Origin: Schmidtea polychroa
Lineage: Eukaryota
Direction of reading: 5' to 3'
Assembly (NCBI GenBank): GCA_044892525.1
Contig: CM097886.1
Span: 100,192,001-100,256,000 of the forward strand
Length of the DNA: 64,000 nucleotides
Shown here one piece after another: positions 33,060-57,422 of the stretch. The notes below the pieces were generated by a model, which searched no databases, was not told the DNA's origin, and worked only from the letters and a program-made list of their open reading frames with translations. A program made the translations under genes and the position numbers. Position 1 is the stretch's first letter. Each line of letters starts with the position of its first letter.

Positions 33060-33084
33060 ATTGGACGAAAAATAGTATATAAGG
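33060..33084 (+). promoter_or_regulatory. Candidate LTR promoter: reverse CCAAT box + TATA box (copy at 59697-59721)
   Basis: ATTGG-N11-TATATAAGG, with the same motif and spacing in the relic LTR at 13309-13333 (minus strand). Confidence 0.6.
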
Positions 33085-35501: not shown

Positions 35502-36263
35502 ATGGCTACATCGTCCAACAACGCCAACGAACTTCGCCCGTGTTTTTCTTGTGCGGACAAGAACGCGGATATCGCCCAACTGCATCTATATATCGGGGCT
35601 CTCAAAAAGAGAATTGATCTCTATGAAGGAACGTGGTTCTCCCCGCCACAAATGAAAGAGGAACGCAAGAAAATTCTCCGATTAGAGCATTGCAGGGACA
35701 GCCTGCTAGAGGAAAGCCGTTGCCAGCGGCTCACCATCAAAGCGCAATCAGAAGCCCTCCATAAGGTGTATACGGAGGCAGAATTGGCTAAGCGGGTGCG
35801 AGAATTTCCCGTTCTGGATGGGACGAATGTTTTTCCCCTTCACCACCAGTCTCCTACATCTTCCAGCTCGCACTGCCAGGGGCACGGCTCACAACTGCCG
35901 CCCATTCCAGCCCCAGTGTTGTCAAGTCACCAGCCAAAGACAGGTGGACCTACCGATCCCATCGTAGCTCAAATCTTGGTAGCACCAATCGGTACCACGA
36001 ACACCGAAAAACCCCCGACTAACCGCAAACGGAAACGGCCAACTCGAGCCGAGAAGAACCAAAAACGCCGAGATGCGATGACAGCACTCGAGACGTCCTT
36101 ATCGGCGGCGAAATCAAAAATCCAAGAGATAACGTCCTCCCATTCAATCCCCTCAAAGGAAGTCTTCCGCATTGTTCCAGCGGAGGGCATCAAGTACATT
36201 GTAGATAGCCGATTACCGGTCGACATAGATGAGATACTGGCCGATGGAGATAACTTTGTTTAA
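35502..36263 (+). CDS. LTR-encoded 253-aa protein: CxxC + coiled coil, Pro/Ser-rich linker, basic NLS-like patch
   Basis: Intact ORF with identical translation in both LTRs. Preceded by TTTTCTAG and followed by AATAAA. Confidence 0.7.
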   Translation: MATSSNNANELRPCFSCADKNADIAQLHLYIGALKKRIDLYEGTWFSPPQMKEERKKILRLEHCRDSLLEESRCQRLTIKAQSEALHKVYTEAELAKRVREFPVLDGTNVFPLHHQSPTSSSSHCQGHGSQLPPIPAPVLSSHQPKTGGPTDPIVAQILVAPIGTTNTEKPPTNRKRKRPTRAEKNQKRRDAMTALETSLSAAKSKIQEITSSHSIPSKEVFRIVPAEGIKYIVDSRLPVDIDEILADGDNFV

Positions 36264-36393
36264 TGTGATGTACAATTGAGCTTGATTTCCTCTTCATTGA
36301 GTTGTAAATTATCTTGTGAATGTTGCTAATGTTATATCTTTTTGACTGCTGTTGATCTGTTAGTGGTAATGATATTTTTATCGTTTCAGTGTC

Positions 36394-36399
36394 AATAAA
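36394..36399 (+). terminator. Candidate polyadenylation signal AATAAA in the LTR
   Basis: AATAAA followed by a T/G-rich tract, about 400 bp before the LTR end. Confidence 0.5.
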
Positions 36400-36809
36400 A
36401 TTTTCTGTTTGATTTCAGTTTTGTCGAGTTTTCATATATTTGTTTGTGCAATTTGAGTAGATGAGATAATGCTGCGGAATGAAGCTAATTAAAGTTGAAA
36501 GTCGTTCCTTTGGACCAGGAGCAGACCAAGTGACACGCATGTATGTGGGTAAGTCCTTCTAGGGCACCGTAGGACCCGAACCGAGAAAGGGTTAGGAGTA
36601 GTCCTAAGGCAGGGGCTCACCTGCTAACCTTTTCCGACCCGTGTGAGCAGCACCAACATGGAACATCACCATGGGCTCATATGTGGGAATATGCAATCAA
36701 TCATTTGGAGTATGTGTAGAAAATGTATAGCGGAGCCATGATGCTTGATAGGTGTGATGGAAAGGCATGTATAATTTTCTTTCTTCTCCACATACGCCAA
36801 CATGATTTT

Positions 36810-36827: not shown

Positions 36828-37262
36828 GTATATTGATTTGTTTGATTGTCTAATTTTGTGTTATGATGTGTTAGATTAACAATTTAATTAATTATGATAA
36901 AAACGGAATCGGGGCTGAAACGAATTATAGTGCAATAAAATGATACGAACTGTCTGAGTTTGAAATAGAGCATGTGGTGAATGAAACGAACCTAAATGAG
37001 TTGGAATGAATGTGATGAAGTATGATGAGAAAAGAAAACGGGAATTGGTTATTGTGGTTAATTTTAACTGGTTAAAATAAGAAGGGGGACGAAAGAAAGT
37101 AAGTGATTAAAGCAAAAAGATGAAAGGGGAATTTCAAAGATCGAATAAAATACAAAAGTTAAAACACTAAAGCATAAAAGTCAACGAATATTAAATACAA
37201 ACATAATAATATTAATTTTAATACCAGCAGGAACAAAATAATAACAACCCATTCATTTAGAT

Positions 37263-37742
37263 ATGTCAGAAGCTAGACAACATCTACAACAGCTAAGCCG
37301 GTTCGTCGAAATAGAAAATGATTCAATAAAAACATTAAGGGAAAAACTGAAACAAATAGAACTGCTAGAACGACAAAGCCACAACGCACCGCTGATATCC
37401 AAACAAAACTTTCTAACCGACAGATTAGGATCAACAAATACCGATACCGACTTGTCTATTCATTACCAATGGTTTCAGCAACGTCTCGACGACCCCGCTC
37501 TGAACATCGAATATGTGAGGATACGCGAACAAGTCAAAACTTTGTCTCAGCGGATACGAACATCAATAGTAGAGAAAGCAGCGGCCTTGAGAACTTGTAA
37601 CATTTGCAAGATGCGACCTGTCAAAATTCTGATTCTACCTTGTGGGCACCTTAGCCATTGTGACGAATGCGCCGCCAGTTTAATCCGTTGTTCTATGTGC
37701 ACATGTGTAATAAAAGAGAAGCACACAATCTACTTCAGTTAG
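37263..37742 (+). CDS. 159-aa coiled-coil protein with C-terminal IAP/MDM2-type C3HC4 RING (putative E3 ligase)
   Basis: CNICKMRPVKILILPCGHLSHCDECAASLIRCSMC...IYFS-stop. No BIR domain seen. Confidence 0.85.
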   Translation: MSEARQHLQQLSRFVEIENDSIKTLREKLKQIELLERQSHNAPLISKQNFLTDRLGSTNTDTDLSIHYQWFQQRLDDPALNIEYVRIREQVKTLSQRIRTSIVEKAAALRTCNICKMRPVKILILPCGHLSHCDECAASLIRCSMCTCVIKEKHTIYFS

Positions 37743-38323
37743 GTACGCGATCGTCGCTCGGTGAAGGAAATTGGATGATTGACAATTAGATTAAACATTT
37801 TGATATTTTTGTTCTGATTTAATTCGGTAATGTTTTATAATGATAGCATATATTATCTGTAATGTGGAGTAAATAACTAATAAATCCTTTTTGTGTATTC
37901 ATTTCATTATACGAAGTTATAAATTGATTTGTGTTGTTATAATTTTCACCATGAAGAAAGGGCATTTTAAAAATTTAAATTGATTATTTAAAGTGGAACT
38001 AGTCCCATCATAGTGTTAAAGGGGGAATAAACCGAGCCACCTTCGGGAGGTACGATATTGGAACCATTTGGGAAGGGACAACCGATCACCCCGAGTAAGA
38101 GATGTAAGGCGAGGTACCATCGCGAATATTGAAAAGTTTCTGCGGTATGGCTGATCACCATACCAATGTAGAAATGGATCAATGCGATCGTTTTGCGTTT
38201 TGAGCAAGGGGGGAAAGGGGAAACCTGCCAAAGCGGTACAGATTAAGTCGACAAATAAAAGTAAAAATAGGAAGACGACAGTATAGAATAAAGACAGAGA
38301 AGGAACGGAAGCATGCAGAGTTT

Positions 38324-39005
38324 AGAGATATTAAGGCCGAGCTGTTGAAAAGTCCAGCCGGTCAGGGAAATTGAAACTGAGCTGTGAAAAGTCCAGCCAG
38401 TCGGAGATATTAAGGCCGAGCTGTTGAAAAGTCCAGCCGGTCAGAAAAATTAAAACTGAGCTGTGAAAAGTCCAGCCAGTCAGAGATATTAAGGCCGAGC
38501 TGTTGAAAAGTCCAGCCGGTCAGGGAAATTGAAACTGAGCTGTGAAAAGTCCAGCCAGTCGGAGATATTAAGGCCGAGCTGTTGAAAAGTCCAGCCGGTC
38601 AGGGAAATTGAAACTGAGCTGTGAAAAGTCCAGCCAGTCAGAGATATTAAGGCCGAGCTGTTGAAAAGTCCAGCCGGTCAGGGAAATTGAAACTGAGCTG
38701 TGAAAAGTCCAGCCAGCCGGAGATATTAAGATCGAGTTGTTGAATAGTCCAACCGGTCAGGAGAAGAAGATTGAGCTGTCGAGAAGTCCAGCCGGTCAGG
38801 AAAAATTAAAACTGAGCTGTGAAAAGTCCAGCCAGTTCGGAGATGAAGAAGATTGAGCTGTTGAATAGTGCCAGCCAGTCGTAAGGCCGAGCTGTTGAAA
38901 AGTCCAGCCGGTCAAGAAAAATTAAAACTGAGCTGTGAAAAGTCCAGCCAGTTCGGAGATGAAGAAGATTGAGCTGTTGAAAAGTGCCAGCCAGTCGTAA
39001 AGGCC
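38324..39005. repeat. Tandem array of alternating 40/39-bp subunits (79-bp dimer), about 17 subunits, degenerating at the 3' end
   Basis: Core GAGCTGT(T)GAAAAGTCCAGCC in every subunit. Confidence 0.95.
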
Positions 39006-40229
39006 TAAAGTAATAGTGAGATAGCATTCAAGCTACAAGTTGATAACATTTAAATTACTAGGGAGATGGAATATTAAAGCTAGCTAGAAGCAAATTGAGT
39101 TTGAAATATGGTATTTGAATTTAGAAAGGATTAAACGAGCTCGTGGGAGGTAATAATGAAATTTTTTTTTCAGTGAGAAAGAGAAACTGAAAAGGAAAAT
39201 GAATTAAAGAGATAATGAAAATAAAGAATAAGTGAGAATAAATGATGAGTAAAAGAGGAAGGTGATTAATTAATTAAAAGGGATCCCAGATGAGTAGACA
39301 AAGTTCTACAGAATTTTTTTGGTTTAAACCGGTTAAACGAATTTTGTTTTGGTTACAGAGTAGAACCAAATAAGGGGAAACAGAGATGAAAGATTAAGTA
39401 AAATAGCGGAACCGCGTAAAAGGATTAAGAAAATATGGGAGGTAATAAGCAGTAACTGACAACGACCTATCGATATTATAAATGCTAACTATAGATAATT
39501 TATACGACTATATAGATAATTGTTACTACCCCAAATAGATAATTTAAAATCGACGAAAAATATGGGTTGATGGGTAATTATATTCCGCGAAGAAGCGTAT
39601 GAGGGGAAATGAAGAGAAGTATAACAGAGGCCCTAAAACGGTGTCTGTGCTTGAATGTGGCAAAAAGGAATGATTGATTCGTGTAAGCAAAGGCAACACG
39701 ATATCATATTTTCATTGTAGACATCAATCCAACCAAGTCAATTCAGAACCAGCTCAAGAGGAATCCAGGGAATATACAAACAACCCAGGAAAAGCAATTC
39801 AGAACCCGCACAAAGGAAAACAATATCAGAACCGAACTCGACCAATTCCGCAGACGCTAACCGTAGAAAAACCCACGTGAAAAGACAGAAAAGAGTAAAA
39901 GGAAAATCACGGATAAACCCAACCTTAGATCTTCAAGTAAGCCAGGGGACGTATTATTTTCAGGAGACGAATTAGATCAACTCAAAAGAGGACGATCATT
40001 TAGGCAGCAGAGAGGAATATCACAAGGAGCAAAAAGACCCCACAAAACACCGATATACGATCAAGAAAACCCCACAGCCGGACATACGCCCAGTCGATCT
40101 AGAAGTAGAGAAAGTCTATCCGATATAACAAACAACCTAACCGGGTCAACAGAAGAATTATCCGTCCATAGTTTAGCTACATCACTAGAAAATTTAAAAG
40201 AAATAATAGCATTTCAAGAACCAATCAAG

Positions 40230-42398
40230 ATGAATGTAGCAAAAACCGACGAATATAAAGAAAAATTTAGAGGCGAACCGTTCAACGGGAATGCGAACAA
40301 GTTGGCAACGTTCATAACAAATTTTGAAGTCTATATCGATGTGTGTGGATGGACATCAGAAGCAATTAGCAAACGGATGCCGTTGTTTTTATGTGATAGC
40401 GCACTCGAAGTGTATCTAGAAGCAAAAGAAAGAAATACGAAATTAGACAATTGGGAAAACATCAAAACATTTTTGAGAAAAACATTCGGAGCCAGCAAAC
40501 CGATAAATCAAGCGTTAGGTGAACTGGCAAGTAGAAAACAAAGAGCAAACGAGTCAATTACGTTATACGCAAGTGAATTGCGAAGATTGGCAAAGAAGGC
40601 CATGAACGGAAACTTGCCGGAGGAAAATTTAATTGGTTACTTCATAGAAGGACTGCGCCGAGAAGAGGTAAGGGCCTCGGTGGGATGTCAAATGTGTAAA
40701 ACACTAGAAGAAGCTATAGATTGGGCCACAAGATGCGAACTACACCTCCCGGCACAAATGAATGTCATGCAAGAGGAGGGAAGAATCGCAACAGCAACGG
40801 TGAAAACGGAAAATGGAGATAACAATAATCATGAACCAAAGATGAATCAGTTTATACCAGGTGCGCATCAAATTTTCAAACCACCACAAGGACGATCAAA
40901 CGGGAATAACAGTGAACGCAACAACTCGAACAATGGGAACAACTTTAATAATCGACGAAATATGAACGATAACAAACAATGCCGAACATGCGGTAAACCA
41001 GGACATTGGGATAGAGATTGTTACCGAAACGCAAATTGCAATAGGTGTGGACGACGAGGACACACGGAAAATATATGCCAATCGAGAGGATGTTTTAACT
41101 GCGGGCAACCAGGTCATATCTCAAGAGACTGTCGAGAAAGGAGCCAACAGCAACGACCACCACAGCGAAATAATAACTATGCACCAAATCCGCAACGACA
41201 AAGTAATCCTAGTGAGGGAAAGCAAATGAATGTGATGCAAGAAATTTCACAAATGAAGCAGATGATGCAACAAATGATGAGACCGAGACAAGAGCAAGTA
41301 CCACAACAAACCCAGAATATACGCATGATGAGAAGCACCGAGAATCTTAACAATTATGAAGTGCAACAACATGCACAAGAATGGCAAAGATTACAAGCTG
41401 AAGAAGAGAGGATAAAAAGAGAGCGAATTCAGCAGCGACAAGAACAACCACTACGAATAAATATGATGAGGATGGTAAAGGAGATAAAGGAGCAATATTG
41501 TTACAACTATGGTAAAAATCCAAGAGTTGTACCTACGAGCGAACCAGAGAAACCGAAGGAAACAATTACAGCAGCAAAAAAGGAAAATTCAACAACACCG
41601 CTAAAAGGAAATCAGAGAATTCAGAAAATATTTTGGAAAAAGATAAAAGATAAAATCGAAAGAGAAAATGAGAAAACAAAAACAGAAGCAGAAGCAGAGA
41701 ATAACGAAAATGAAAAACAGATTAATCATCTAAGTCATGATATGATACGAGAATTAGACTCAGAGGAGCTAACGATATTCGAGAACAAAAAGTTAAAGAA
41801 AGTACCAAGAATGAGAAATTTACGAATTAATATGATGAGGACAACAAAGACGGTGTTGTCAACAGATGACGATGAGGATTATGTGAGTAGCCTTGGTGGA
41901 GAAATGTTACAGTTAAATGAAAATATCGACCAACTAAGAGAGAAGATCGGAACAGAGGAAGAAGAGAGTGAAAGCGACGTAACAAGCGAAAGCGAAGACG
42001 AGAATATCGAAATGAAATTGAGAAAAGAAAGAGAAGAATCGATAAAACAAGTAAAGGAAATACTTCCAGTGGTGGTAAGAAACCAGGAATTCATTGACAT
42101 CATACCATACCGACGCTTCATACAAAAGATAATGAAACTAGAAAGAAACGAAAAAGACCTAATACCAAACGAGGAAAAAGTGATAATAAAGAAGTATATG
42201 GAAAAAATGAAACAAGCGGAGACAACACGGTATGTAATAAAAATCGGAACGAGTAAAGGGCTCGAGAGAATATGGATAAAAAGCAGTCACAGACGACCTT
42301 TTCGATTGGATAAGAGAACATTTGGGCAGCTCGAGAAAGAAAGAATACCTGTATCAATATCAAGGAGAACAAATCAAACCAGACATGCACCTAATTGA
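40230..42398 (+). CDS. gag: Gag: capsid-like region, three CCHC zinc knuckles, Q/N-rich and acidic extensions; the frame is open from 39867
   Basis: PFNGNANKLATFITNFE...GW; RKQRANESITLYASELRRLA; CRTCGKPGHWDRDC, CNRCGRRGHTENIC, CFNCGQPGHISRDC. Confidence 0.93.
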   Translation: MNVAKTDEYKEKFRGEPFNGNANKLATFITNFEVYIDVCGWTSEAISKRMPLFLCDSALEVYLEAKERNTKLDNWENIKTFLRKTFGASKPINQALGELASRKQRANESITLYASELRRLAKKAMNGNLPEENLIGYFIEGLRREEVRASVGCQMCKTLEEAIDWATRCELHLPAQMNVMQEEGRIATATVKTENGDNNNHEPKMNQFIPGAHQIFKPPQGRSNGNNSERNNSNNGNNFNNRRNMNDNKQCRTCGKPGHWDRDCYRNANCNRCGRRGHTENICQSRGCFNCGQPGHISRDCRERSQQQRPPQRNNNYAPNPQRQSNPSEGKQMNVMQEISQMKQMMQQMMRPRQEQVPQQTQNIRMMRSTENLNNYEVQQHAQEWQRLQAEEERIKRERIQQRQEQPLRINMMRMVKEIKEQYCYNYGKNPRVVPTSEPEKPKETITAAKKENSTTPLKGNQRIQKIFWKKIKDKIERENEKTKTEAEAENNENEKQINHLSHDMIRELDSEELTIFENKKLKKVPRMRNLRINMMRTTKTVLSTDDDEDYVSSLGGEMLQLNENIDQLREKIGTEEEESESDVTSESEDENIEMKLRKEREESIKQVKEILPVVVRNQEFIDIIPYRRFIQKIMKLERNEKDLIPNEEKVIIKKYMEKMKQAETTRYVIKIGTSKGLERIWIKSSHRRPFRLDKRTFGQLEKERIPVSISRRTNQTRHAPN

Positions 42399-45300
42399 TG
42401 CATTGATCTGGCCAGGAGAAATTCAAATATTGAAATTGTATAAAGAGAAGCAACCAGCAAATATTCACGAATGGGCTAAAGACGCCAAGGCCGAGTATGA
42501 CTTTAACATCAAGCTGAAGCTGGACCAAATAAAACAATGCACCTTGCGACGAAATCTAGATAAATTAATCAAGCAAATCCAAGAACAAGTTGAGGATAAC
42601 TGGGATTTGCTCATAACAAGACGAACTGCAGACATGCATGAGCTAATGAGCCGATTACGAGATACAGAATTGCTCAGGATGAGTGATTGGAGAACCATAA
42701 ATTTGATCCACAAATACGGAAGATTAAAAGAAACGCAACCGCAGAAATTAGAAATAACCATATGGTTACCAAACGAGGAGAAACGACGAATAAAGATGAG
42801 TAATCAGAGTACGGTGGATGACTTAGTAACCAAGATAAACCAAGAGATAACGGAAAAAGTACGAAGCGAGAGTAACGACGGGATGATAGATGATGTAGTC
42901 ATGATGTACGATAAAATAATACTACGGGCCGAAGACGACACCTCGCTAAGCGAAATGGGAATATGGGATAATCATCAAATCATCAGAATATTGCCCATGG
43001 ACGAATTCCGAACAAGAGATATAACATACCAGAAAGAAATACGAGACAGGATGAAAACGCTATATCAAAAATCAGTAGAGATAATTGAAATTCATCAACA
43101 GTGGCTAAAAGAAAAAGAGCTTCAAGGAAAAATAAAGAAACTAAGTGTTAGATCCTGCAGACGAACCCCATGGGAAAGGATGTGGGATGCGGAAAGCAAA
43201 GAATGGGAAATCAGGAAAGGGATTTTCGTGGAAACAGACATTGGCGAGATAGAAAGCGAACCAGAAGAAGAGGAAGATGAACCTCCAAAATACGAAGAGG
43301 ACGAAATAGAATCGACATCGGACGACGAAAGCGAAACGGATGTCACATCAGAAAGTGAAACGGAAACCAGACATATTCATGCGATGAGGAAGAAAGAACG
43401 CGAATACGCCGATATGGACAGCGAAGAAGCGATGGAAGCTCGAGAACGAGAAGAGAAGGAAAGATATAAACAATTAGGTGATATCTTAGCAACGGGAACA
43501 AAAAATCAAAAACGTCAAGTAATAGCATTGGCTAACATCATCCTAAAGACATCAGAGAATATCCACAATCTAAGAGAAATGGCGAAAGCGATTGAGGAAT
43601 ACCGACAATATAACGAATGGTACCCAGAACAGCTAGAACAAATTATTAGGAAATGGAGAAACCAAGAATGGGCACAAGATACCCAGGAAAGGTATCGTAT
43701 CCGAGTCAAATATCCCGACAAAAGCATTGAGGATACAGAAGTACATCCAACAACAAAAATCAGAGAGTTAAAAAAGAAATTAGCATACGAAACTCCATTT
43801 CACCTACAACTATTCGGAAAATCGTTGGATGATAATGTAGATGTCGGAATAACACCCATGAGATTGGGGGAGATCAATGTATTGACAATGGCAGAAACAT
43901 TGGGAAAACCGATTAAAAGGAAGAGCAAATCCAGTAAACCTACGAAAGGTAGCTTGAGTACACCAAGCCCTAACAAAGTGGCAAGTAAATCGAATGAAAC
44001 CGAGGAAATCGAGGAAATTATATTGGAAGACAGCGATGAAGGAGCTGGAGAAAGATCACCAATTCTGGTAAGATGGCCGACAGGAGCCGAAATATGGACA
44101 ACAAGCCAACCGTCAACTAGCCATCAGCAGCCAAATAAGCTAAGTATCGAGGAGATTATCGATAATACAACAGAAACCGAAACCGACGAACAATTCCAAC
44201 GACAGAAAGGACCAACGAAAGCAACACCAGAAGGTCAAACCGACAAAATAATAGACGAATGGAACGAATGGCTGAGAAACAACGATAGCTCATTACCAAG
44301 AACGGATAACGAGAGAAACCCGAATTATGAAAATACAAGGGAAGCCGGAACAATGATGGAGAAACGGGCAAAAGGGAGACCCAAGAAGCAAGGAGAAAAA
44401 CCGGAATTTAAAACCCGAGAACAGTTGAAGCAAGAACAAGGACAAGTCAGATTAGAGAAACTGGATAAAATAGTGTGGGATCTAAAAGAGGCCCTGCCAA
44501 CTATCGAAAGAGGCGAAAAATGGATACGAGAGCTAGTAAAAGATATGTTAATAGTAACAAACCCGCAATTGAGACGGTTATGGCAACGAAAAGTAGCAAG
44601 CGTAGACGCCAGACAACTATGGAATACAATATCCGGAATAATTCCGAAATTAATCAAAGAGAAGACAAAAACCACTAAAACCGATTGGGAAGAGACAAGA
44701 AGAGTAATTGAACAATTAACGTTAAACGCAAACGACGACGAACATCATTTAGTAGTATTAACGTATCTAATGTACAATTTGATGGGATTAGCAGCAAGGA
44801 AAATACCTAACAAACAATTCGCAAATCATGTAGAAATGACCGTTACAATCATTGAAAATACAATCGAACCACATATTATCCGCGCCGGTGGGTGGAAAAG
44901 ACTCATACAAGCGCCACGAAAAAACGAGCAAGAGAGATCAATGCAAATTCGGTTGAAGAAATTACTAAACGAGCTAGAATGGGAATTGCCATTGAAAGAC
45001 CCAGCCAGCAGAAAAGCGTCGATTAATTCACTAATGATGACCATGATGATATGGATGCTCTGCACCAGTGGAGCCGCGGGATTTACTATTTACGACTGTG
45101 ACAATTCGATAATAGGAGAAAGATACTCCCTGAGAGATATAGAGGAATGTAGACAGGCATCTCCGAATAAATTAGATATAGTAAAAAAGAAAGTCTCCTA
45201 TCACGTATACCAAGAATCAGATTTCATTAGAACGCAAGCTAGAGAATGCGTAGTATCGAAGAAAGTGTTGGCATATTACTGTGGACAATATTCATATTCA

Positions 45301-48300
45301 ACCCTCATATTACCTGGATTAGATAAAGAAATAGTACCTATACAACGGGAAGACTGTAAAGAGCTTTTTAGAACCGGAGCGATGAGAATCAGGGATGGAG
45401 TAACAATACACGGACAAAGCGGAATGATCAAGACAGAAAGTATCTATGTCGCCGGACGAGTAAAATCAACTGATGGATCATGTAACGGAGGCACATATAC
45501 GATCAGAGGAGAGGTGATATCAGGAGTAGTAGTAATTGAGTCCTACACAGTGGAGTTGAAGGAATACGAAGCACAATTCGACGCAAACAACTATCAAATG
45601 AAAACCAACCCAGCATGCAGAGCTACGGAAAACGTGTGTAGAACGGGGATTTCGACTATAATATATGAAGCTAACACCCAAAAATGCCGACTCCAATTGT
45701 TAAAAAGTGCTCTATTCAATGAAGTAAAAGGAGAAATTTACGAAAACGAGGATGACGATGAAGAGAATGGAAACGTAAGGATGCGAAATGGGAAACCAGT
45801 TCCGCCATCCCCCAAAGAAAAGAGACTCATAACCCAAAAAACACCAACGGCATTAATTACAGATGACCCAGATATCGGCATGAGATTCATTAGAGAAAAA
45901 GAGACCACCAAATGTGACAGTATAGTATACCGGACGAACTACGCAGGTATCTACATGTCAAGGCAAGTAATAGACCGAGCAGTGGGAAAGGTAGCAACAG
46001 AGGACGTAAAATTGTACCTGTATGCCAATAACAAAATGGACTTTTTATTTCATCGAGGACAAACGACAATGCAAAAAGTGTATTACGATCTTATACAAAA
46101 TGACTGTTCATTGAATAAAGAGATACTAAAAACAAAATTAGCCATCGCAATAACACACCCAGATAACACAATGCCATCACTCCCGCTACCGGATGGACAT
46201 TTTGGTAGAATGGTGGGAGAGGTAATGTATACATATGCATGTACCAAGACATTTGCGCGACTGCCAAGAAAGCCCACAATTCCACCAGGGAAATGTGCAA
46301 ACGAGTTAGAAATTAGCTACAAAGGGCGGAACAGATTCGTTCAACCCGTCACTCGGATAATGAACCCAATTGGATTTTATCCAAACACCTTTAACTGTTC
46401 AAATGCATACGGACCGTTATATGAAAAACCCGATGGGAAATGGATAATGTTACCAGTAAAAACCGAAGTACAAGAGCCTAAAAAGTTTGGATTAATAGAA
46501 CTCGCAACAGAACAAGATTTCAAACCAATTGATGTGTCAAAGGCTGGTATGTACTCACCAGAGGATTTAGAAACGGCACGATTAAACGTATTATTCCCAG
46601 CAAGACGGGAATCCATTCTATCGAATATGGTTACCATAACTGGGGGAACGAATTTCCAGTCAGGCCCCAATTACGAACTATTATTGTCACCTGATCATTT
46701 TCAACAAGCCACGTCAAACATGATGAAAGCCATGTGGGGAAGATTTCTAGTGTTCGGTCAAATGATGACAGGAATATTGGGAATCATTCTTATTATACAG
46801 ATTGTTAGAGTAATATTAACTCAAATGTTAGCGTGTTTTGATATCTATAAGAGAGAAAAGAAGGTAAATTGGAAATTGATAGTGGGCTTTCTACCATTTT
46901 TGGCAAAAACAATGGTGTTGCACGGTCATTCTAAAGACATACATAGAATAAAACGATTGATCAAAATACTGACAAAAATAAAAGGAACTGACGAGGAAGT
47001 CGGTAGACGATTTCGGAAAACAATGTATGATGAAGCAACAAGGACGCAACTGAAAAAGAACAAACCAAAATTCCTAGACAGATTTAGAAATCGATCAAAC
47101 AGCAGCGATAGTGATGATGACGACAACGGGAATGACAAATACCCATATCCAAGTAGAAACCCGAATGAAAAGCCAATAGAAACAGCGCCATACTGGGAGA
47201 AAGAAAAAACAAATACCTGGATAGCCAACGGAAGTTATATACCACCGGATATCGTTGGACAACAAACAGCTTTGACCATGACACAAAATATGTATCCACA
47301 GTTACCAAGTCAACCAGGTATGAACTATATGCCGACCCGAAGAACGAAAAGTGTAGACCAAGCGGACGACGTAAGAACGATAGCAGTGATGAGTTCACCA
47401 GGAGGTGCGGCAGTAACAGTCATGATCCAAATCAACGGGAAAGAGACAAGCGCAATGATAGATACAGGGGCAAACGTATCAGCAATAGCAATAAACCAAA
47501 TACCCAGTAAATGTTGGAAAGATATCGAACAAACAACTATCCATATTATTGCATGCAGTAAAGAAACCGTAGACGTAGTAGGAAGATGGTGGACTACGTT
47601 ACGATATCAGGATAACGAAATTGAAACGTATCTAGCGGTGATACCCAAACTGAGTGAACCATGTATAATCGGAACGGATTTAATGCCGGAATTGTTTAAG
47701 GAAGTAGTAATCGATTTAACAACAATGTGTCTAAAAGACAAAATGGGTAGAATATGCAAGATGAACGCAATAATTAGATGTCCGGAGAAAATAATTGTAC
47801 CCGCAAAATCACAAATGATATGTCAAATAAAAGTGGATGCAGGAATGGAAGGAGAAGTCATTTTTGAGCCAAGCAAATCATTCGAAAAACGACGAGAATT
47901 ACCATTAGCAAGAGAAATAATAACAATAAATGAAGACGGGGAAATACCAATTAACATCACAAATTTCGAGGAAGAAGACAAGATCATATATGAAAATGAA
48001 AGATTGGGTAGATTGACACCCATGATAGACATCGAATTACCAAAAATCACCAACGAAACAACGAAAGCTGACGAATTATGGATAATTGATAGCACCTTAC
48101 TAACGGAAAAAGAAAAGGAAAGACTTCAACAATTATTGATAGAATATAAAGATATATTCGCAATTTCGGATTTAGATTTGGGAGCATGCGATGTTACACT
48201 ACACGCAATACCATTAATAGACGAAACTCCAATCGCACTACGTCCATACAAACTAGCAGAGAAGCAAAAAGAGATAGCCGAAGCAGAAGTACAAAAAATG

Positions 48301-51300
48301 CTAGATGCACAAGTGATCGAACCAAGTTGTTCGCCATGGCAATTTCCAGTAGTCATGGTGAAGAAAAAAGACGGTACTCAGAGATTCTGTATCGATTATC
48401 GGAAATTAAATGCAGTAACAAAAAGAGACACATACCCTTTACCAGACATCAATGAGATGTTACTTATGTTACAGGGGGCCGCATATTTTACATCTTTAGA
48501 TCTGAAAAGTGGATATTGGCAGATCAAAGTCAAGGAGGAAGACAAAGAGAAAACAGCATTCACATTGGGCCGAGATCTATACCAATTCAGGAAAATGCCG
48601 TTCGGACTGACCAATGCCCCAGCATCATTCCAGAGATGTATGAATTTTGTCACACACGGGATCAAGCAGTGTATGGTATATATTGATGATTTATTAATAT
48701 ATTCAGCAACTTTCGAACAACATTTGGAAGACATTAGAAACGTGTTCATCCGATTACGACAATGGAAATTGAAACTCAAACCATCCAAATGTGATTGGGC
48801 AAAAGAAAAAGTTACGTTCTTAGGACACATAGTGTCAGCAAAAGGCAAAGAACCAGATCCAAGAAACATAGAAAAAATAAAAACATGTCCAGCACCAAAA
48901 ACTGTCACCCAAGTTCAAGAATTTCTCGGATTATGCGGATATTATCGAAAATTCATCAAAAACTATGCAGGTATTGCGAAACCAATACAGGAATTAGTGA
49001 AAAAGGATATTTCATTTATTTGGGGTGCAGAACAACAAAAAGCGTTTGAGACATTGCGAGATAAATTAATTGAAGCCCCAATACTAGTACATCCTGATTT
49101 CAAGAAACCGTTCTTATTAGCAACAGATGCAAGTGGATATGCAGCCGGAGCAATATTGGGACAACTCGACGAAGAAGGAAAAGAAAGAGTGATTGGATAC
49201 TACAGTAGAACGTTTAAAAAGCATGAGAAAAACTATTCCGTAACCGAGAGAGAAGCGTTAGCAATCATACAAGCGATTAAACATTTTCGATATTTGTTAT
49301 GGGGACACGAAATATGTATCACCACGGATCACCAACCATTAGTATGGCTTGGTCAACACAAAGAAGCCTCAAGTAGATTGATGCGATGGGCAATGCAGTT
49401 ACAAGAATATTCACCGTTCATAAAATTCAAAGCGGGAAGAGCGAATGCCAATGCGGATTGTATGTCCAGATTTATCTTTCCAGATTTAGTAGATCACGAA
49501 ATGCAACGAATATGTCTGATGGTAGCAGAAGATTTAGATTTTTGCCAATTACGGAAAGACCAACAAGAGGATACAGAGTTGAAGCAAATCATTGAATATG
49601 TGAAAACAGGGAAAGCAGAGGTATATGAGAAAGATCAAAAATTGAAGGAGCATATGGATAAACATCGACATCGATATATTATCGAGAAGGATTGGTTATT
49701 GATAATGGATGGCGAGAAAAGACTGATGTGCATTCCCGAGAATAGACGTAAAGATCTACTAACACAATACCATGACGGAAGACTCGGAGGACATATGTCA
49801 TCTAAAAAGACGTTGGCACGAATGAAACAAAAGTATTTTTGGCCTACATTGACCGAGGATGTAACGGAATGGGTGAAAAATTGCATAACTTGCGCAACCA
49901 GAAAAAACACGGGAACAAAATGGAAGGCACCATTAAAGCCAATGCCAGTACCAGCGGAACCAATGACAATGATATCAATGGACGTAGTCGGTCCATTACC
50001 AGAATCAGATAGAGGGAATATATATATATTGGTGATTACGGATTATTTGACGAAATTCCCCGAAGCATTCGCAATGGCAGATCAGAAAGCAAGAACAATC
50101 GCAAAAATACTAGTAGAGGAGATATGCTGTCGATATGGAACACCGAAACAGATACTAACTGATCAAGGGACAAATTTCATGAGCGAAATAACGAGCGAAG
50201 TCACCAACTACTTCAAGATCGCAAAATTAAGAACATCACCGTACCATCCACAAACTAATGGGATGACAGAAAGATTCAATGGAACACTGATTCATATGTT
50301 ATCAAATTATGTCGATCGTCATCAACGCGACTGGGACGAGTATATAAAATTATGTTTAATGGCTTACAGAATGTCGATTCACGCGTCCACAAAGATGAGT
50401 CCGTTTAAGTTGATGTACGGTAGAGAATGCAATATGCCAATGGATTTAGAATATCAGCCACCAATATCACAATACATGGAAATAGACGATTATGTAACCA
50501 AGTTCAAGGAAAGAATGCAGGAAATCTGGGAAACTGCAGGATTGAATATAAAATTTTATCAAGAAAGTTACAAAGAGTTACATGATAGAAAGAAAAACGT
50601 CAAACAGCATACGTTTCAAACGGGCGATTGGGTGATGATCGAAACACCAGAATTAATTCCAGGAACCACCAAAAAATTACAACGAAACGGCAAAGGTCCG
50701 TATGAGATTCTATTCATCGGAGAAACCAATGTGAGAGTACGATTAGTGAACAACCCTTTTACAAGACCAATATACGTAAATGTTGCACGATGTAAGCCAA
50801 TACCGAAAACAGCCACCAGCCAGCCGGAAGGGCGAACCTTAACCACAAGATCACAAACATATAGAATAAACATGTTACAGCAGATAAACGAACCAACAGG
50901 TAATCGATTAGGGTTACAACCATCAGAAGCCGAGAAAATCATAAAGGAAGTAAAAGTTAAAATGCCCGGATGGGCAAAAGACAGATTAGATTTTGAGATA
51001 TTGGGCGGTCTGCTAACAATGATCGAAAATTATGCAAACCGAGAAAGAACACACCCATTACTTAGGGTAGTAAAAAGTCAATGGCCTATATTATTTACGA
51101 TCACAGACCATTATGGAGATACACCGCTGCACAAACTTTTAAAGGTCGGGAATAATGAACAAATACTGGAAACGATCGAAGCATTTCGCGACTGTAACAT
51201 TTCGACGGATCAAGAAAATAACCAAGGTTACACCCCACTAATGATAGCAGCCAATCGGGATAAAGCTAAAGATATTATCATCGCATTACTCGAAACTGGG

Positions 51301-54099
51301 TCAAAGATAACCACGCAAGACCACAACCAGAAAAATGCACTACATCATGCAATCGAAGGGAAAAGTACGGAAGCCTTCATAATCTTAGTAGATCTATTAG
51401 CATATGAGGATAATAGGGAGATAGGAAACATGTATGACGGGTTACTAACTGCAATCAAAGAGAGATTAATAACAATTGCTGGATTACTAATTGCATGGAG
51501 AAACCCGATAAAAAACGATTATATGGTAGATATAAACGAAACATTTACCAAAGGAGAAAACACCTTGATGAGAGAAGCGATGAGAGGACACCACCTATTC
51601 GAAATTCCAAATCAACTACTACAACGTGGCATAAAGTTCTCAAATCACAAAGACGAACAACTAATCAGAAAACGAATTACCAACTTCGAAAAAGCTATAT
51701 CTCAATTTACCGATAAAGTACAAGTAAAATTTTGGGAAACCGTGAGTGTTTTACATATGATGGAAACTATGAACAACATTCGAGAAAACTACCTAAGTAT
51801 TATTCAAGTTCTAATGGCGGAGGAACGCATTAACAGTTCGAACAAGAAAAAGATAAAAATAAAGAAAGTAAAAGCAAGAGAGTCTGGGGAACAAGTCGAT
51901 CAACCAATAACCGATATAGCAACAACAAATAAACCAAAGACAATAAACTCCGACCAAGAGATAGTAGTACGTAAGGCTAAAGAAGTATTCTTTGAAGAAA
52001 TGCAAGATCTATCCGATGAAGCGATACTAGCAAAAATAACCAAAACAGTACACACCTACGCAAGAGATCAGACCACGAATCTAGACATAGGAAAAATAAA
52101 AACATTTATACCACTAGCATTCACCTTACCAACAAAAGACTCAAGAACACCATTACAACAAGCCATTTTAGCAGCAAAAGAAAACAGAGCAATAACCATC
52201 ATAAGAATCCTCAGAGACTTCGGAGAAGAATCTAATGCAAAAAATGAACAAGGAGAAACAGCAATGATGTATGCAGCCATAACAAATATACACCCGAAAA
52301 CATTACATATACTACATCGATCGGGATCAAGACTGGATGAAATATCAAACGAAGGAAATTCTACCATGGATTGGGCAACGATACAACCAAACTTGGAAAT
52401 GATTAGATTCATTTGTAAAAATGCTACAAGAACCGAGGTAGAAAATATCTGTAAAAACACGTCACAGTTCCAATGGAACACGATACGGATGAACTTAGAA
52501 GCCATGAAGTTATTGGTAACATGGAGAATACCACAAAGCAATAAATATGCAATAAATATAAATGAGTTCTACGAAAACGGAGAAAATGCGATGGTTAAAA
52601 ATACACTAACAAAAGGAGGAACTCCGAAAATCATAATGATCGTATTGAACAGGGAGGACCTCAAATTCACGCAAAATCTAAACGAACAAAAGCGAATCGG
52701 AAAACATCGCCGTATACAATTGAGAGAACTGGTAAAAGAATGGAATAGAAAGAGACATGTAGCAACAGGCAGAAAGGAGTTCGAATTCGAGGCAAAATTA
52801 GCAAGAAACAGAGTGCTAACGGCATACCACAGATTGTTGAATGATATAAATGTCGAGGACGACATTTTAAACGATAGCGGGGGAGATAAAGACGATAAAG
52901 ACGACGATAATAATGAAAAAGGTCGAAACGGGAATAAAGAGAAAGAGAAATCAGAGGGGAATAATCAAGAAAATAACAACGCGAGTAGGAAAAAAGAAGA
53001 AAACAACCCGAGAAACCGAATAAAGCAAGAAGAAAAGACGAATAGTGGAAAACAGAGGGTATGTCTACTTTTTACCAACAAAGAAATGGAGACAAATATG
53101 ATGATAATGATACTCGTATTAACAATGGTGGAAATGATAACAGCCCAGGGAGGAATGAGAACGATAAAAGAAGCCAAAGAAACGGAAAATAAGGACAACA
53201 AAGAGGAAGAACTAAAACAAGAAAAGAAAAAACAAGTACAAGAGCAGCAATGGGATTTAAAAGAAGAATGGGATTTAAAAGAAAGGTGTATATTAGGAAG
53301 ATGTATGTCTAGAGCTTATCAGAGACTAGTGTTAAAAAATGAAGATGCAGAACCAATAACGGAAGTAAGAATACAAGAAGCATATCGAAATCGAGACGGA
53401 AAGAGAATAACGAAAGTCAAAGGGAAGGAGGTACATCTGGGAAAAGGAGGTGAGGTAGTGATAACGCAACTCCAGCCAAGAAAAGAACACAAAGTCTGCA
53501 TTGCAAGATTAAGACCGGGGGAAGACTGTCTACAATATGTAATACAGCAACAACCTCCAAAAGAATACACAATATGCATCTGGAGAAAAGATACAGCGAG
53601 AGAATGTCGACGATACCCTGGGAAAAGAGGGAAGAAAAGAAAAATCGATGATGGAAAAGATGAGCAAGGAAAACGCAAGAAAAACAGTGAGAAACATCAA
53701 GACAATTATGTATCCGAGGAGGAGATGGAGAAAATACAAAAAATGGCAAAGGAAGGTATGAACGAGGAAATAGCAAGAATACGAGGAATGATGAAAGGAA
53801 ATGGCAAAGACGGTAATCTAAAAAGCACAGAAGCAATATCAACACTAACGAGCAAGGAAAAAGCGGAAGTTATAAGCGTAAAACAGATGATGTGGATCAG
53901 CGGCATAATAATAACAGGGGCCTTTTTAATCATAACGGGGGGGACAATAAAAATAATCAAAGATAGACGGCATCGCGGAGAACTAGAAATGGCCAGAATA
54001 AGAAATTTTCAACATCGTGTAAAACGACCAAGTAATATCAAGCAGGAACAGTGGGTGGAGGCCTGGAATGCTCAGCTCCCTCCAAGCTCACGTATATAG
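42322..54099 (+). CDS. pol: 3925-aa polyprotein (+1 frame relative to gag, open from 42280): UBL domains, Bcl-2-like, Env, PR, dUTPase-like, RT, RNase H, IN, ankyrins, C-terminal membrane protein
   Basis: Uninterrupted 11.8-kb ORF with MIDTGANVS, YIDD, ATDASGYA, HX4H...CX2C, MDVVGPLP, TDQGTNF, PQTNGMTERFN and GPY. Confidence 0.95.
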   Translation: MGSSRKKEYLYQYQGEQIKPDMHLIDALIWPGEIQILKLYKEKQPANIHEWAKDAKAEYDFNIKLKLDQIKQCTLRRNLDKLIKQIQEQVEDNWDLLITRRTADMHELMSRLRDTELLRMSDWRTINLIHKYGRLKETQPQKLEITIWLPNEEKRRIKMSNQSTVDDLVTKINQEITEKVRSESNDGMIDDVVMMYDKIILRAEDDTSLSEMGIWDNHQIIRILPMDEFRTRDITYQKEIRDRMKTLYQKSVEIIEIHQQWLKEKELQGKIKKLSVRSCRRTPWERMWDAESKEWEIRKGIFVETDIGEIESEPEEEEDEPPKYEEDEIESTSDDESETDVTSESETETRHIHAMRKKEREYADMDSEEAMEAREREEKERYKQLGDILATGTKNQKRQVIALANIILKTSENIHNLREMAKAIEEYRQYNEWYPEQLEQIIRKWRNQEWAQDTQERYRIRVKYPDKSIEDTEVHPTTKIRELKKKLAYETPFHLQLFGKSLDDNVDVGITPMRLGEINVLTMAETLGKPIKRKSKSSKPTKGSLSTPSPNKVASKSNETEEIEEIILEDSDEGAGERSPILVRWPTGAEIWTTSQPSTSHQQPNKLSIEEIIDNTTETETDEQFQRQKGPTKATPEGQTDKIIDEWNEWLRNNDSSLPRTDNERNPNYENTREAGTMMEKRAKGRPKKQGEKPEFKTREQLKQEQGQVRLEKLDKIVWDLKEALPTIERGEKWIRELVKDMLIVTNPQLRRLWQRKVASVDARQLWNTISGIIPKLIKEKTKTTKTDWEETRRVIEQLTLNANDDEHHLVVLTYLMYNLMGLAARKIPNKQFANHVEMTVTIIENTIEPHIIRAGGWKRLIQAPRKNEQERSMQIRLKKLLNELEWELPLKDPASRKASINSLMMTMMIWMLCTSGAAGFTIYDCDNSIIGERYSLRDIEECRQASPNKLDIVKKKVSYHVYQESDFIRTQARECVVSKKVLAYYCGQYSYSTLILPGLDKEIVPIQREDCKELFRTGAMRIRDGVTIHGQSGMIKTESIYVAGRVKSTDGSCNGGTYTIRGEVISGVVVIESYTVELKEYEAQFDANNYQMKTNPACRATENVCRTGISTIIYEANTQKCRLQLLKSALFNEVKGEIYENEDDDEENGNVRMRNGKPVPPSPKEKRLITQKTPTALITDDPDIGMRFIREKETTKCDSIVYRTNYAGIYMSRQVIDRAVGKVATEDVKLYLYANNKMDFLFHRGQTTMQKVYYDLIQNDCSLNKEILKTKLAIAITHPDNTMPSLPLPDGHFGRMVGEVMYTYACTKTFARLPRKPTIPPGKCANELEISYKGRNRFVQPVTRIMNPIGFYPNTFNCSNAYGPLYEKPDGKWIMLPVKTEVQEPKKFGLIELATEQDFKPIDVSKAGMYSPEDLETARLNVLFPARRESILSNMVTITGGTNFQSGPNYELLLSPDHFQQATSNMMKAMWGRFLVFGQMMTGILGIILIIQIVRVILTQMLACFDIYKREKKVNWKLIVGFLPFLAKTMVLHGHSKDIHRIKRLIKILTKIKGTDEEVGRRFRKTMYDEATRTQLKKNKPKFLDRFRNRSNSSDSDDDDNGNDKYPYPSRNPNEKPIETAPYWEKEKTNTWIANGSYIPPDIVGQQTALTMTQNMYPQLPSQPGMNYMPTRRTKSVDQADDVRTIAVMSSPGGAAVTVMIQINGKETSAMIDTGANVSAIAINQIPSKCWKDIEQTTIHIIACSKETVDVVGRWWTTLRYQDNEIETYLAVIPKLSEPCIIGTDLMPELFKEVVIDLTTMCLKDKMGRICKMNAIIRCPEKIIVPAKSQMICQIKVDAGMEGEVIFEPSKSFEKRRELPLAREIITINEDGEIPINITNFEEEDKIIYENERLGRLTPMIDIELPKITNETTKADELWIIDSTLLTEKEKERLQQLLIEYKDIFAISDLDLGACDVTLHAIPLIDETPIALRPYKLAEKQKEIAEAEVQKMLDAQVIEPSCSPWQFPVVMVKKKDGTQRFCIDYRKLNAVTKRDTYPLPDINEMLLMLQGAAYFTSLDLKSGYWQIKVKEEDKEKTAFTLGRDLYQFRKMPFGLTNAPASFQRCMNFVTHGIKQCMVYIDDLLIYSATFEQHLEDIRNVFIRLRQWKLKLKPSKCDWAKEKVTFLGHIVSAKGKEPDPRNIEKIKTCPAPKTVTQVQEFLGLCGYYRKFIKNYAGIAKPIQELVKKDISFIWGAEQQKAFETLRDKLIEAPILVHPDFKKPFLLATDASGYAAGAILGQLDEEGKERVIGYYSRTFKKHEKNYSVTEREALAIIQAIKHFRYLLWGHEICITTDHQPLVWLGQHKEASSRLMRWAMQLQEYSPFIKFKAGRANANADCMSRFIFPDLVDHEMQRICLMVAEDLDFCQLRKDQQEDTELKQIIEYVKTGKAEVYEKDQKLKEHMDKHRHRYIIEKDWLLIMDGEKRLMCIPENRRKDLLTQYHDGRLGGHMSSKKTLARMKQKYFWPTLTEDVTEWVKNCITCATRKNTGTKWKAPLKPMPVPAEPMTMISMDVVGPLPESDRGNIYILVITDYLTKFPEAFAMADQKARTIAKILVEEICCRYGTPKQILTDQGTNFMSEITSEVTNYFKIAKLRTSPYHPQTNGMTERFNGTLIHMLSNYVDRHQRDWDEYIKLCLMAYRMSIHASTKMSPFKLMYGRECNMPMDLEYQPPISQYMEIDDYVTKFKERMQEIWETAGLNIKFYQESYKELHDRKKNVKQHTFQTGDWVMIETPELIPGTTKKLQRNGKGPYEILFIGETNVRVRLVNNPFTRPIYVNVARCKPIPKTATSQPEGRTLTTRSQTYRINMLQQINEPTGNRLGLQPSEAEKIIKEVKVKMPGWAKDRLDFEILGGLLTMIENYANRERTHPLLRVVKSQWPILFTITDHYGDTPLHKLLKVGNNEQILETIEAFRDCNISTDQENNQGYTPLMIAANRDKAKDIIIALLETGSKITTQDHNQKNALHHAIEGKSTEAFIILVDLLAYEDNREIGNMYDGLLTAIKERLITIAGLLIAWRNPIKNDYMVDINETFTKGENTLMREAMRGHHLFEIPNQLLQRGIKFSNHKDEQLIRKRITNFEKAISQFTDKVQVKFWETVSVLHMMETMNNIRENYLSIIQVLMAEERINSSNKKKIKIKKVKARESGEQVDQPITDIATTNKPKTINSDQEIVVRKAKEVFFEEMQDLSDEAILAKITKTVHTYARDQTTNLDIGKIKTFIPLAFTLPTKDSRTPLQQAILAAKENRAITIIRILRDFGEESNAKNEQGETAMMYAAITNIHPKTLHILHRSGSRLDEISNEGNSTMDWATIQPNLEMIRFICKNATRTEVENICKNTSQFQWNTIRMNLEAMKLLVTWRIPQSNKYAININEFYENGENAMVKNTLTKGGTPKIIMIVLNREDLKFTQNLNEQKRIGKHRRIQLRELVKEWNRKRHVATGRKEFEFEAKLARNRVLTAYHRLLNDINVEDDILNDSGGDKDDKDDDNNEKGRNGNKEKEKSEGNNQENNNASRKKEENNPRNRIKQEEKTNSGKQRVCLLFTNKEMETNMMIMILVLTMVEMITAQGGMRTIKEAKETENKDNKEEELKQEKKKQVQEQQWDLKEEWDLKERCILGRCMSRAYQRLVLKNEDAEPITEVRIQEAYRNRDGKRITKVKGKEVHLGKGGEVVITQLQPRKEHKVCIARLRPGEDCLQYVIQQQPPKEYTICIWRKDTARECRRYPGKRGKKRKIDDGKDEQGKRKKNSEKHQDNYVSEEEMEKIQKMAKEGMNEEIARIRGMMKGNGKDGNLKSTEAISTLTSKEKAEVISVKQMMWISGIIITGAFLIITGGTIKIIKDRRHRGELEMARIRNFQHRVKRPSNIKQEQWVEAWNAQLPPSSRI
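44452..44910 (+). other. Bcl-2-like domain within the polyprotein
   Basis: BH2-like IENTIEPHIIRAGGWKRLI and a hydrophobic BH1-position helix HLVVLTYLMYNL. NWGR is absent. Confidence 0.65.
45031..46920 (+). other. env: Env glycoprotein (chuvirus-G/herpes gB-like class III fusogen): signal peptide 45031-45081, ectodomain, TM about 46750-46830
   Basis: AG/FTIYDC, YSLRDIEEC, ECVVSKKVLAYYCGQYS, DCKEL, DGSCNGG, a Cys-rich ectodomain and FGQMMTGILGIILIIQIVRVIL match the chuvirus glycoprotein-like pattern. Confidence 0.8.
47410..47710 (+). other. Aspartic protease domain
   Basis: INGKETSAMIDTGANVSAI ... CIIGTDL. Confidence 0.93.
48140..49470 (+). other. Reverse transcriptase and RNase H domains
   Basis: SPWQFPVVMVKKKDG, RFCIDYRKLN, LDLKSGYWQI, MPFGLTNAPASFQR, VYIDD; TDASG, EREALAI, TDHQPL. 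Confidence 0.97.
49720..50730 (+). other. Integrase (HHCC, DDE, GPY/F)
   Basis: HDGRLGGH ... CITC; ISMDVVGP; LTDQG; ERFNGTL; KGPYEI. Confidence 0.97.
51100..52620 (+). other. Two ankyrin-repeat modules downstream of integrase
   Basis: YGDTPLHKLL, QGYTPLMIAA, QKNALHHAI; RTPLQQAI, QGETAMMYAA, EGNSTMDWAT. Confidence 0.85.
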
Positions 54100-54267
54100 A
54101 AAGGATTATGACTGTATATAGATTGTAAAAAGTAAGTAGGTAATATTTATTTATATAACAGTATGCTATATTTTTATATAAGCGCGGTATCAATAGTATA
54201 TAATGATGGGGATAATTAATATGAAAATAAAATTAGATAAGGATTGAAAAGTATATATAAATTAAGA

Positions 54268-54627
54268 ATGGAGCGAATAGGCGAGGAAGTAAATCACAGT
54301 ACAACAACCGAGGAGATGTGGAAACAACAATGTGCAATGTTAACTCAAGTGATTTCGAATTTACAGGAACAAGGACTCGCTGTACAAAGAAGCTTAGTCG
54401 AAAGTTTAAATAAAGGCTTCAGTTATGTAAGAATAATCGAAGACCAACGAATAAAAATAGAACAAATGCAGCGAGAGATAGACCGAATATCACGATACAG
54501 CCAGGTGCAAGAAGAGGAGTTAATAAGAATCGCGGAAGAGATGGAGCGAGAGGAGATAGAAGACTGGTCGGAATGGTTAACCAGCAGGGAAGAGGGCGGA
54601 CAAGAGGCCGACTCTTCCAGCCAATAA
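54268..54627 (+). CDS. Small acidic coiled-coil protein (about 119 aa from ATG 54268)
   Basis: Intact ORF with E/Q/R-rich heptad pattern, bounded by AT-rich spacers. Confidence 0.6.
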   Translation: MERIGEEVNHSTTTEEMWKQQCAMLTQVISNLQEQGLAVQRSLVESLNKGFSYVRIIEDQRIKIEQMQREIDRISRYSQVQEEELIRIAEEMEREEIEDWSEWLTSREEGGQEADSSSQ

Positions 54628-54716
54628 ACATAACCTAAAATAACAATGTAAATAACTGTAAATAAAAATACGAAACTGTACCAGTAACGAATATATGTAT
54701 ATATATAATTATAGAA

Positions 54717-56105: not shown

Positions 56106-56324
56106 AGAGACGAATAATTTTGTATATACTAATTGTAGATATCGGCGTATATATCCAGTAAAATATTATATAGTAGTGTAGAAAAATTCCCCCAAATCTA
56201 CTAAAGGTAAACTTAAGCGAAAAACTCCTAAAACAACTCCTATAACGAATTGTAAAAATAAATAAAAAATAAGCCAAATATAAGCGTACAACGTTGAGTT
56301 AATAATATCATTGTTCAGATCAAG

Positions 56325-57362: not shown

Positions 57363-57376
57363 AGATAAAGGGGAAG

Positions 57377-57378
<2 letters not shown>

Positions 57379-57422
<44 letters not shown>
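57379..57422. repeat. A30 tract followed by (TA)n
   Basis: Direct reading of the sequence. Confidence 0.95.

Follow-up and report, generated by a model that had tools for sequence, protein, structure and literature searches.

The window, a 64,000-nucleotide stretch of Schmidtea polychroa DNA, harbors a giant gypsy-type LTR retrotransposon of 30.8 kb (32,558–63,403), bounded by 4.2-kb LTRs with TG...CA termini and flanked by a 4-bp target-site duplication, ATAT. The left LTR (32,558–36,802), which begins with TGTTGG and ends with CCAACA, shares 99.08% identity with the right LTR (59,195–63,403). Within each LTR lies a 253-aa ORF (35,502–36,263 and 62,103–62,864); both are identical and had no Pfam match. 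Elsewhere in the window, we noted a 2.36-kb inverted duplication of DNA-transposase-like sequence (21,871–24,229 and 26,352–28,711; 99.8% identical).

The LTRs, the internal repeats, gag, the remaining polyprotein with its domains and the RING and TRAF-like ORFs all lie on the forward strand. An accessory RING-finger ORF (37,245–37,742; PF13920, E 3e-8) comes first, followed by tandem repeats with periods of 79 bp and 116 bp in the 5′ internal region (38,246–39,000) and a gag ORF (39,867–42,398) in which Pfam searches recognized Retrotrans_gag and CCHC knuckles. In the window copy, a frame break near 42,283–42,287 parts gag from the remaining polyprotein—a 3,939-aa ORF (42,280–54,099) that encompasses a ubiquitin-like (Ubl) region, a Bcl-2-like domain, an envelope protein (Env), protease (PR), reverse transcriptase (RT), RNase H, integrase (IN), ankyrin repeats and C-terminal membrane segments. 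The ubiquitin-like match is weak (43,699–43,803; PF00240, E 0.03). It is followed by a basic motif with a GRP core (44,362–44,388), read directly from the sequence, which we take to be AT-hook/NLS-like and which recurs in two of the related families introduced below (B and C). Env (45,082–46,818; PF24664, E 4e-71) corresponds to a Monjiviricetes-type fusion glycoprotein ectodomain, with a furin-like KEKR at 45,814 and a transmembrane helix at 46,762–46,818. Protease, RT, RNase H and integrase follow in gypsy order (47,419–50,250; Pfam), and then the ankyrin repeats (51,169–52,314; Pfam). Toward the C-terminus, we observed a second signal-peptide-like segment (53,098–53,154), a cysteine-containing region and a transmembrane helix (53,878–53,934); judging from this arrangement, the C-terminal part is likely a second membrane protein. 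Downstream of pol, an accessory TRAF-like ORF combines RING, zinc fingers and MATH (54,666–56,105; PF21355, E 3e-25), and further accessory ORFs (54,241–54,627 and 56,298–58,963) are mostly coiled-coil-like, with hydrophobic segments in 58,310–58,963.

The element is one of many. When we searched the 781-Mb genome (four large contigs) for copies of the Bcl-2-like domain, at least 150 were found at 92–100% identity (771 candidates, 150 scored). A stop interrupted the domain in four of the 150 scored copies, and in 67 of the 150 listed copies, counted by hand, the domain lay within an open frame of at least 4,700 aa. Contigs of one presumed-RNA run and of one other run cover the region, which by itself is no proof of transcription; for the related Burro element of Schmidtea mediterranea, excerpts of PMC8532177 report that BURRO1 transcripts increase upon smedwi-2 knockdown.

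The initial annotation had placed a Bcl-2-like domain in this retrotransposon polyprotein, and both the profile of its relatives and the predicted fold bear this out. All quoted motifs lie in frame in the 3,939-aa ORF—WEETRRVIEQL at 44,686, HLVVLTYLMYNLMGLA at 44,746 and IENTIEPHIIRAGGWKRLI at 44,851—and the BH1 and BH2 helices sit where they had been assigned. As to the limits originally drawn (44,452–44,910), the core stood, while the true start lies about 50 nt later: profile search, profile–profile comparison, the AlphaFold model and fold searches together delimit a Bcl-2-fold domain at 44,500–44,925, and 44,440–44,490 forms an additional helix ahead of the fold. The domain comprises helix 1 (~44,512–44,559), a helix 2 devoid of a BH3 motif (~44,602–44,634), helix 4 (at 44,686), a BH1 site reading D-D-E-H (44,734–44,745), helix 5 (from 44,737) and the GGW of BH2 (44,887–44,895). 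NWGR is absent, as noted at the outset; D-D-E-H aligns in its place, at 44,734.

On its own, the window sequence matched PF00452 weakly, with E 0.02–0.07 and 14–16 bits (15.9 bits for the domain), below the curated cut-off of 31.4 bits. PF00452 was the first match for seven of nine retroelement domains (15.7–30.0 bits, best E 8e-7) and gave no match for the other two, both from family B; none of the nine reached the cut-off. A phmmer search of the window domain against the PDB found no Bcl-2. A profile built from retroelement copies only returned 125 PDB rows at E≤1, the best 60 of which were all Bcl-2/Bcl-xL (best E 2.9e-4, over BH1–BH2), and a profile–profile comparison with eight Bcl-2 proteins that the same genome encodes in host genes or Polintons reached 94.9% probability. 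The large protein collections searched, including 1.84 billion representatives, held no relative, which says little given that polyproteins of more than 2,000 aa fall outside the ranges of most of these searches.

Structure prediction pointed the same way. From an input alignment of 18 natural retroelement copies only (the fragment rows L079 and L096 were left out), AlphaFold returned a model with pLDDT 80.2 and pTM 0.74, whose helical bundle is arranged around a central hydrophobic helix 5; prediction from the single sequence gave pLDDT 44 and no meaningful fold match. In a VIA-align comparison with 48,161 chains, ranks 1–35 were Bcl-2 family members, including all 30 chains with Z≥8, and the first unrelated chain scored Z 6.1. 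The best matches were A179L, Trichoplax Bcl-2L2 and Bcl-xL (Z 13.1, 13.0 and 12.9; rmsd ~3 Å over 132–136 residues), values that, by the program's own guidance, helical bundles can still reach. All Foldseek rows from the PDB likewise belonged to the Bcl-2 family (probability 1.00, TM ~0.6), with nothing at E≤0.001 (best 4e-3), whereas the ESM Atlas (best score 0.80) was uninformative. The fold covers model residues 22–163, that is, 44,500–44,925 of the window. AlphaFold and Foldseek, the check that the initial annotation had called for, thus predict a Bcl-2 helical bundle; a chance motif is ruled out by the profile and fold evidence, and we regard the presence of a Bcl-2-fold domain as confirmed at the level of the predicted structure.

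Genome searches with PF00452, the Env family and BIR uncovered four further gypsy families (B–E; the window element represents family A). A related domain occupies the same place in all five, with 23–38% identity between families, and its position between Gag and Env is kept throughout, including in the shorter polyproteins (~3,050 and 3,334 aa). MATH changes place, being in frame in family B and on a separate ORF in the window. Family B (L088–L090) is Burro1-like: it carries MATH in frame, Bcl-2-like, Env, Pol and ankyrin domains together with a 392-aa BIR-RING (IAP-like) ORF. BIR matches numbered at least 150 in the genome, and none occurred in the window ORFs scanned.

The constancy of the Gag–Env position in all five families, while MATH moves, would be expected of a structural part: the Bcl-2 fold would serve as a matrix-like or leader-peptide module, holding Gag at the ER membrane and linking it to Env for budding, with no role in death control. 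The domain would then be produced 1:1 with Gag and Env, the loss of the BH1 Trp and Gly and of the BH3 motif in every family (see below) speaks for this reading, and the foamy virus Env leader peptide, as described in excerpts of PMC3705266, provides a precedent. What a tether would not need is the entire Bcl-2 bundle and the BH2 GGW (in 20 of 20 aligned rows), both of which are retained, and we consider this explanation fairly unlikely, though the most probable of the rivals to the reading proposed below.

The domain is under purifying selection. Pairwise Nei–Gojobori estimates, from one pair per family, gave dN/dS values far below 1 in the four families tested: 0.023 (A), 0.032 (B), 0.104 (C) and 0.365 (D). 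The family A pair differed by 61 synonymous and 15 non-synonymous changes in 139 codons, with dS saturated. Selection in family A does not single out the domain, because the whole polyprotein is equally constrained (dN/dS 0.01–0.05 throughout, acidic linker included). In family C, the corresponding values were 0.17 upstream, 0.34 in the linker and 0.023 in Env, and Env of family D gave 0.091. Two subfamilies of family A (42,280–48,699 of the window compared with L094) showed near-saturated dS of 1–3, yet dN stayed at 0.03–0.07 along the whole length, the acidic low-complexity linker being no exception. The domain could in principle be a functionless leftover from an ancient gene capture, retained merely by being in frame; the family A value, no lower than that of neighboring linkers, and the 0.365 of family D would suit this idea. 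Preservation of the fold, the helix pattern and GGW at 23–38% identity, together with dN/dS far below 1 in four families, largely refutes it, leaving it very improbable.

In an unrooted tree of 20 rows, with long branches and four rows that are single exons, the nine retroelement domains formed one side of a branch with 100/98 support, separated from eight host and three Polinton rows. The tree joined A with B and D with E, and Env identities agree (51% and 70%, respectively). This topology fits a single old capture of the domain. The host genome itself contains a cluster of seven near-identical Bcl-2 gene copies with canonical NWGR (C4:89.9–90.8 Mb; L031–L037), and two adjacent Bax/Bak-like genes (L043, L045, L098:7523–7699) whose BH1 lacks Gly-Arg (WEN, WNA), one with a BH3-like exon upstream. 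Polinton/Maverick-like elements (L067, L068, L069, L075 and L076), labeled by eye from ATPase-, integrase- and PolB-like ORFs, carry Bcl-2-like genes of their own, which have a hydrophobic tail and are in some cases split by an apparent intron.

Across the aligned rows, the GGW of BH2 is invariant in all 20, and the W-x4-GGW motif is recognizable; its first Trp is replaced by His in the window and by Tyr in family B, and is kept in C, D and E. BH1 is another matter. In place of the NWGR of pro-survival BH3-binding proteins, the families read DDEH (A, the window), DQNR (B), NRDK (C), DRDV (D) and DKEV (E), such that the BH1 Trp and Gly are gone in all five, which argues against the usual pro-survival mechanism. 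In addition, the Gly-Asp signature of BH3 (L-x-x-hydrophobic-G-D) was absent by eye from helix 2 of all five families. A Bax/Bak-type effector was dismissed for this reason, as no family has a BH3 motif, and the sequences make such a role unlikely.

These losses bear directly on whether the domain might act as a classical viral Bcl-2, as the initial annotation implied, with a groove that takes up BH3 helices from planarian Bak/Bax or from BH3-only proteins. The whole fold is kept; poxvirus Bcl-2s can bind BH3 despite an altered BH1 and by means of other arginines (excerpts of PMC7719400, in which ORFV125 keeps Gly-Arg); and host planarian Bcl-2 is itself divergent at BH1, with NWGR kept in only two of eight host rows (L031 and L038). 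Against this stand the residues themselves. Across families A–E, the equivalent of W144 is D, Q, R, R and K and that of G145 is E, N, D, D and E, and the window has D, E, H and H at the equivalents of W144, G145, R146 and W188. Human Bcl-2 no longer binds Bax when it carries any one of the substitutions W144A, G145A, G145E, R146A or W188A (excerpts of PMC6825947), and loss of the BH1 Gly has been read as the sign of a non-functional groove (excerpts of PMC8998228). An ER-type anchor, moreover, would not put the domain at mitochondria. A predicted complex between the domain and the host BH3-like exon (L098:7523–7627) scored 0.01; with the alignment unused and the controls not folded, it counts as evidence neither way. 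With the Trp and Gly of BH1 gone and no BH3 motif in any of the five families, BH3-binding, Bax/Bak-blocking activity appears doubtful, and classical capture is an improbable account of the domain.

Poxvirus A52, A46 and B14 are BH3-independent signaling antagonists, and the domain could by analogy block innate-immune or TRAF/NF-kB signaling rather than apoptosis. Such a role would sit well with the loss of the BH1 hallmark and with the TRAF and ankyrin domains encoded by the same element, and the fold comparison itself returned A52, A46 and B14 (Z 8.8, 7.7 and 7.2). The model is nearer to cellular Bcl-2/Bcl-xL and A179L (Z 13), however, and a hydrophobic segment always follows the domain, unlike in the soluble A52-type proteins. 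We therefore rate a signaling antagonist of this kind as improbable, too.

In the window, the segment in question is the Env signal peptide (45,007–45,081), recognized from hydropathy as a basic n-region, a hydrophobic core starting at 45,022 and small residues at –3/–1, with the cleavage site inferred by eye. The initial annotation had located it about 40 aa downstream of the domain and proposed that it could double as a Bcl-2-style tail anchor; it begins 46 residues after the BH2 tryptophan, and a segment of this type does occupy the tail-anchor position of Bcl-2 proteins in all five families. Each of these segments combines a basic n-region, 12–15 hydrophobic residues and small residues at –3/–1, and lies downstream of the BH2 Trp by 46, 43, 51, 23 and 36 residues in A, B, C, D and E, respectively. 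It directly precedes the x-x-x-Y-D-C start of Env, which is also where the PF24664 profile begins in B, C and E. For comparison, Polinton Bcl-2 genes of the same genome have hydrophobic tails at 23 and 15 residues after BH2. The 23 aa of family D thus match the spacing between BH2 and tail in one Polinton Bcl-2, as in an ordinary Bcl-2 layout, and the linkers of families A–C (43–51 aa) are double that length.

Several features indicate on which membrane, and on which side of it, the domain might reside. The Bcl-2 region contains no cysteine as opposed to 14 in the Env ectodomain, which fits a cytosolic domain and a lumenal Env. Past the inferred cut, basic residues are missing from A, D and E, and B and C each have a single Lys. 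The short core of 12–15 aa without a basic C-terminal flank makes an ER signal peptide a better match than a mitochondrial tail; a mitochondrial tail anchor was rejected for want of such a flank, and a mitochondrial tether is accordingly rated unlikely. In the window, the hydrophobic core is weak (Kyte–Doolittle 1.4–1.5, below the threshold of the whole-ORF scan). Since any Env requires a signal peptide, finding one behind the domain calls for no second role, and retroviral signal peptides may be cut again and released (excerpts of PMC3705266 and PMC2649029), in which case no anchor would remain. Weighing these points, we find an ER tether of the Bcl-2 domain through the Env signal peptide plausible and somewhat more likely than not.

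We propose that the domain, with its predicted Bcl-2 fold, is likely anchored at the cytosolic face of the ER by the Env signal peptide and likely helps the cell that produces it to survive, in some way that does not involve classical NWGR-type BH3 capture, a reading to which we assign a probability of roughly 45%. The processing, localization and function that we infer would run as follows. The polyprotein would be made as one chain, and its internal signal peptide would thread Env into the ER lumen, where signal peptidase would cut just before F-T-I-Y-D-C. Cleavage would leave the upstream chain with a cytosolic N-terminus and end it in a hydrophobic tail, as in a tail-anchored Bcl-2; whether or not the domain is also released from Gag would depend on the protease of the element. 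There, the domain could damp ER-stress or apoptotic signaling arising from heavy Env and Gag synthesis, beside the TRAF, RING and ankyrin cargo. Death-control cargo accompanies the domain, with TRAF and RING encoded in the window and BIR-RING in family B, and planarian cytochrome c release employs Bak/Bcl-2 according to excerpts of PMC8998228. Somewhat further reaching, and tentative, is a composite scenario in which Bcl-2 was captured once, a single hydrophobic segment came to serve as both Env signal peptide and tail anchor, and the groove was rewired, yielding either an ER-tethered matrix or leader module or a non-canonical survival factor. Were this true, a Bcl-2 fold would belong to the integral machinery with which a retroviral-type polyprotein assembles particles.

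The existence of a BCL2 domain in Burro polyproteins is already published, as a domain label only: excerpts of a review by Arkhipova and colleagues (PMC6431247) credit Grohme et al. 2018 with noting a BCL2-like motif in Burro-2, -3 and -4. The same excerpts place a Ubi2/SUMO-like domain before BCL-2 and Env between BCL2 and protease, call the role of BCL2 "worthy of experimental confirmation" and leave the apoptosis-related cargo to await experiments. The literature searched, which mostly excluded subscription papers, yielded neither a link to a signal peptide nor a functional study of Burro BCL2. Added here are the domain limits, the predicted fold, the five families, the altered BH1 and the prediction of an ER tether via the Env signal peptide; with these in hand, a small isolated fragment can test the question. 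If the tether and a role in survival or assembly hold, an LTR retroelement would manipulate host cell death as large DNA viruses do, and its host would be an animal that relies on controlled apoptosis to regenerate.

Among known systems, Bcl-2/Bcl-xL, A179L, BHRF1 and KsBcl-2 share with the window domain the helical bundle (as predicted, Z 11–13), the GGW of BH2, the hydrophobic helix 5 and a hydrophobic segment after BH2; unlike them, it has neither NWGR nor a BH3 motif, is embedded in a polyprotein and has the Env signal peptide as its C-terminal hydrophobic segment. The poxvirus proteins M11L, N1, A52, A46 and B14 resemble it in keeping the fold while losing the BH sequence motifs, and in their viral context, but score lower structurally (Z 7–9.4) and are free proteins of DNA viruses. 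Foamy virus gp18LP, MMTV p14/Rem SP and HERV-K SP similarly join a cytosolic domain to an Env signal sequence, yet lack a Bcl-2 fold and a fusion to Gag, and no homology is claimed. The Polinton/adintovirus Bcl-2 proteins—those of the same genome and the lancelet adintovirus Bcl2 in BFVD—are also borne by mobile elements and have a hydrophobic tail; they differ in being stand-alone genes, some of them spliced, in keeping the BH1 Trp and in falling on the opposite side of the tree.

The closest counterpart is Burro (GYPSM1) of Schmidtea mediterranea, which we compared by its published description (excerpts of PMC6431247). Like the window element, a gypsy LTR element above 30 kb with long LTRs, Burro is a gypsy LTR element of >30 kb with tandem repeats and many copies. 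Its ~4,800-aa polyprotein runs Gag, Ubi, BCL2, Env, PR, RT, RNase H, IN, ankyrin, the order found in the window, whose copy is interrupted by a single frame break behind gag. Env is encoded between gag and pol as part of the same frame and is akin to mononegavirus fusion proteins, and MATH/TRAF cargo is present. This cargo differs in placement: it forms a separate downstream ORF in the window and lies in frame in Burro1, and the D. tigrina element has it on an accessory ORF upstream. As family B, with its in-frame MATH and BIR-RING ORF, fits Burro1 better, we take the Burro-type window element to represent a sister family.
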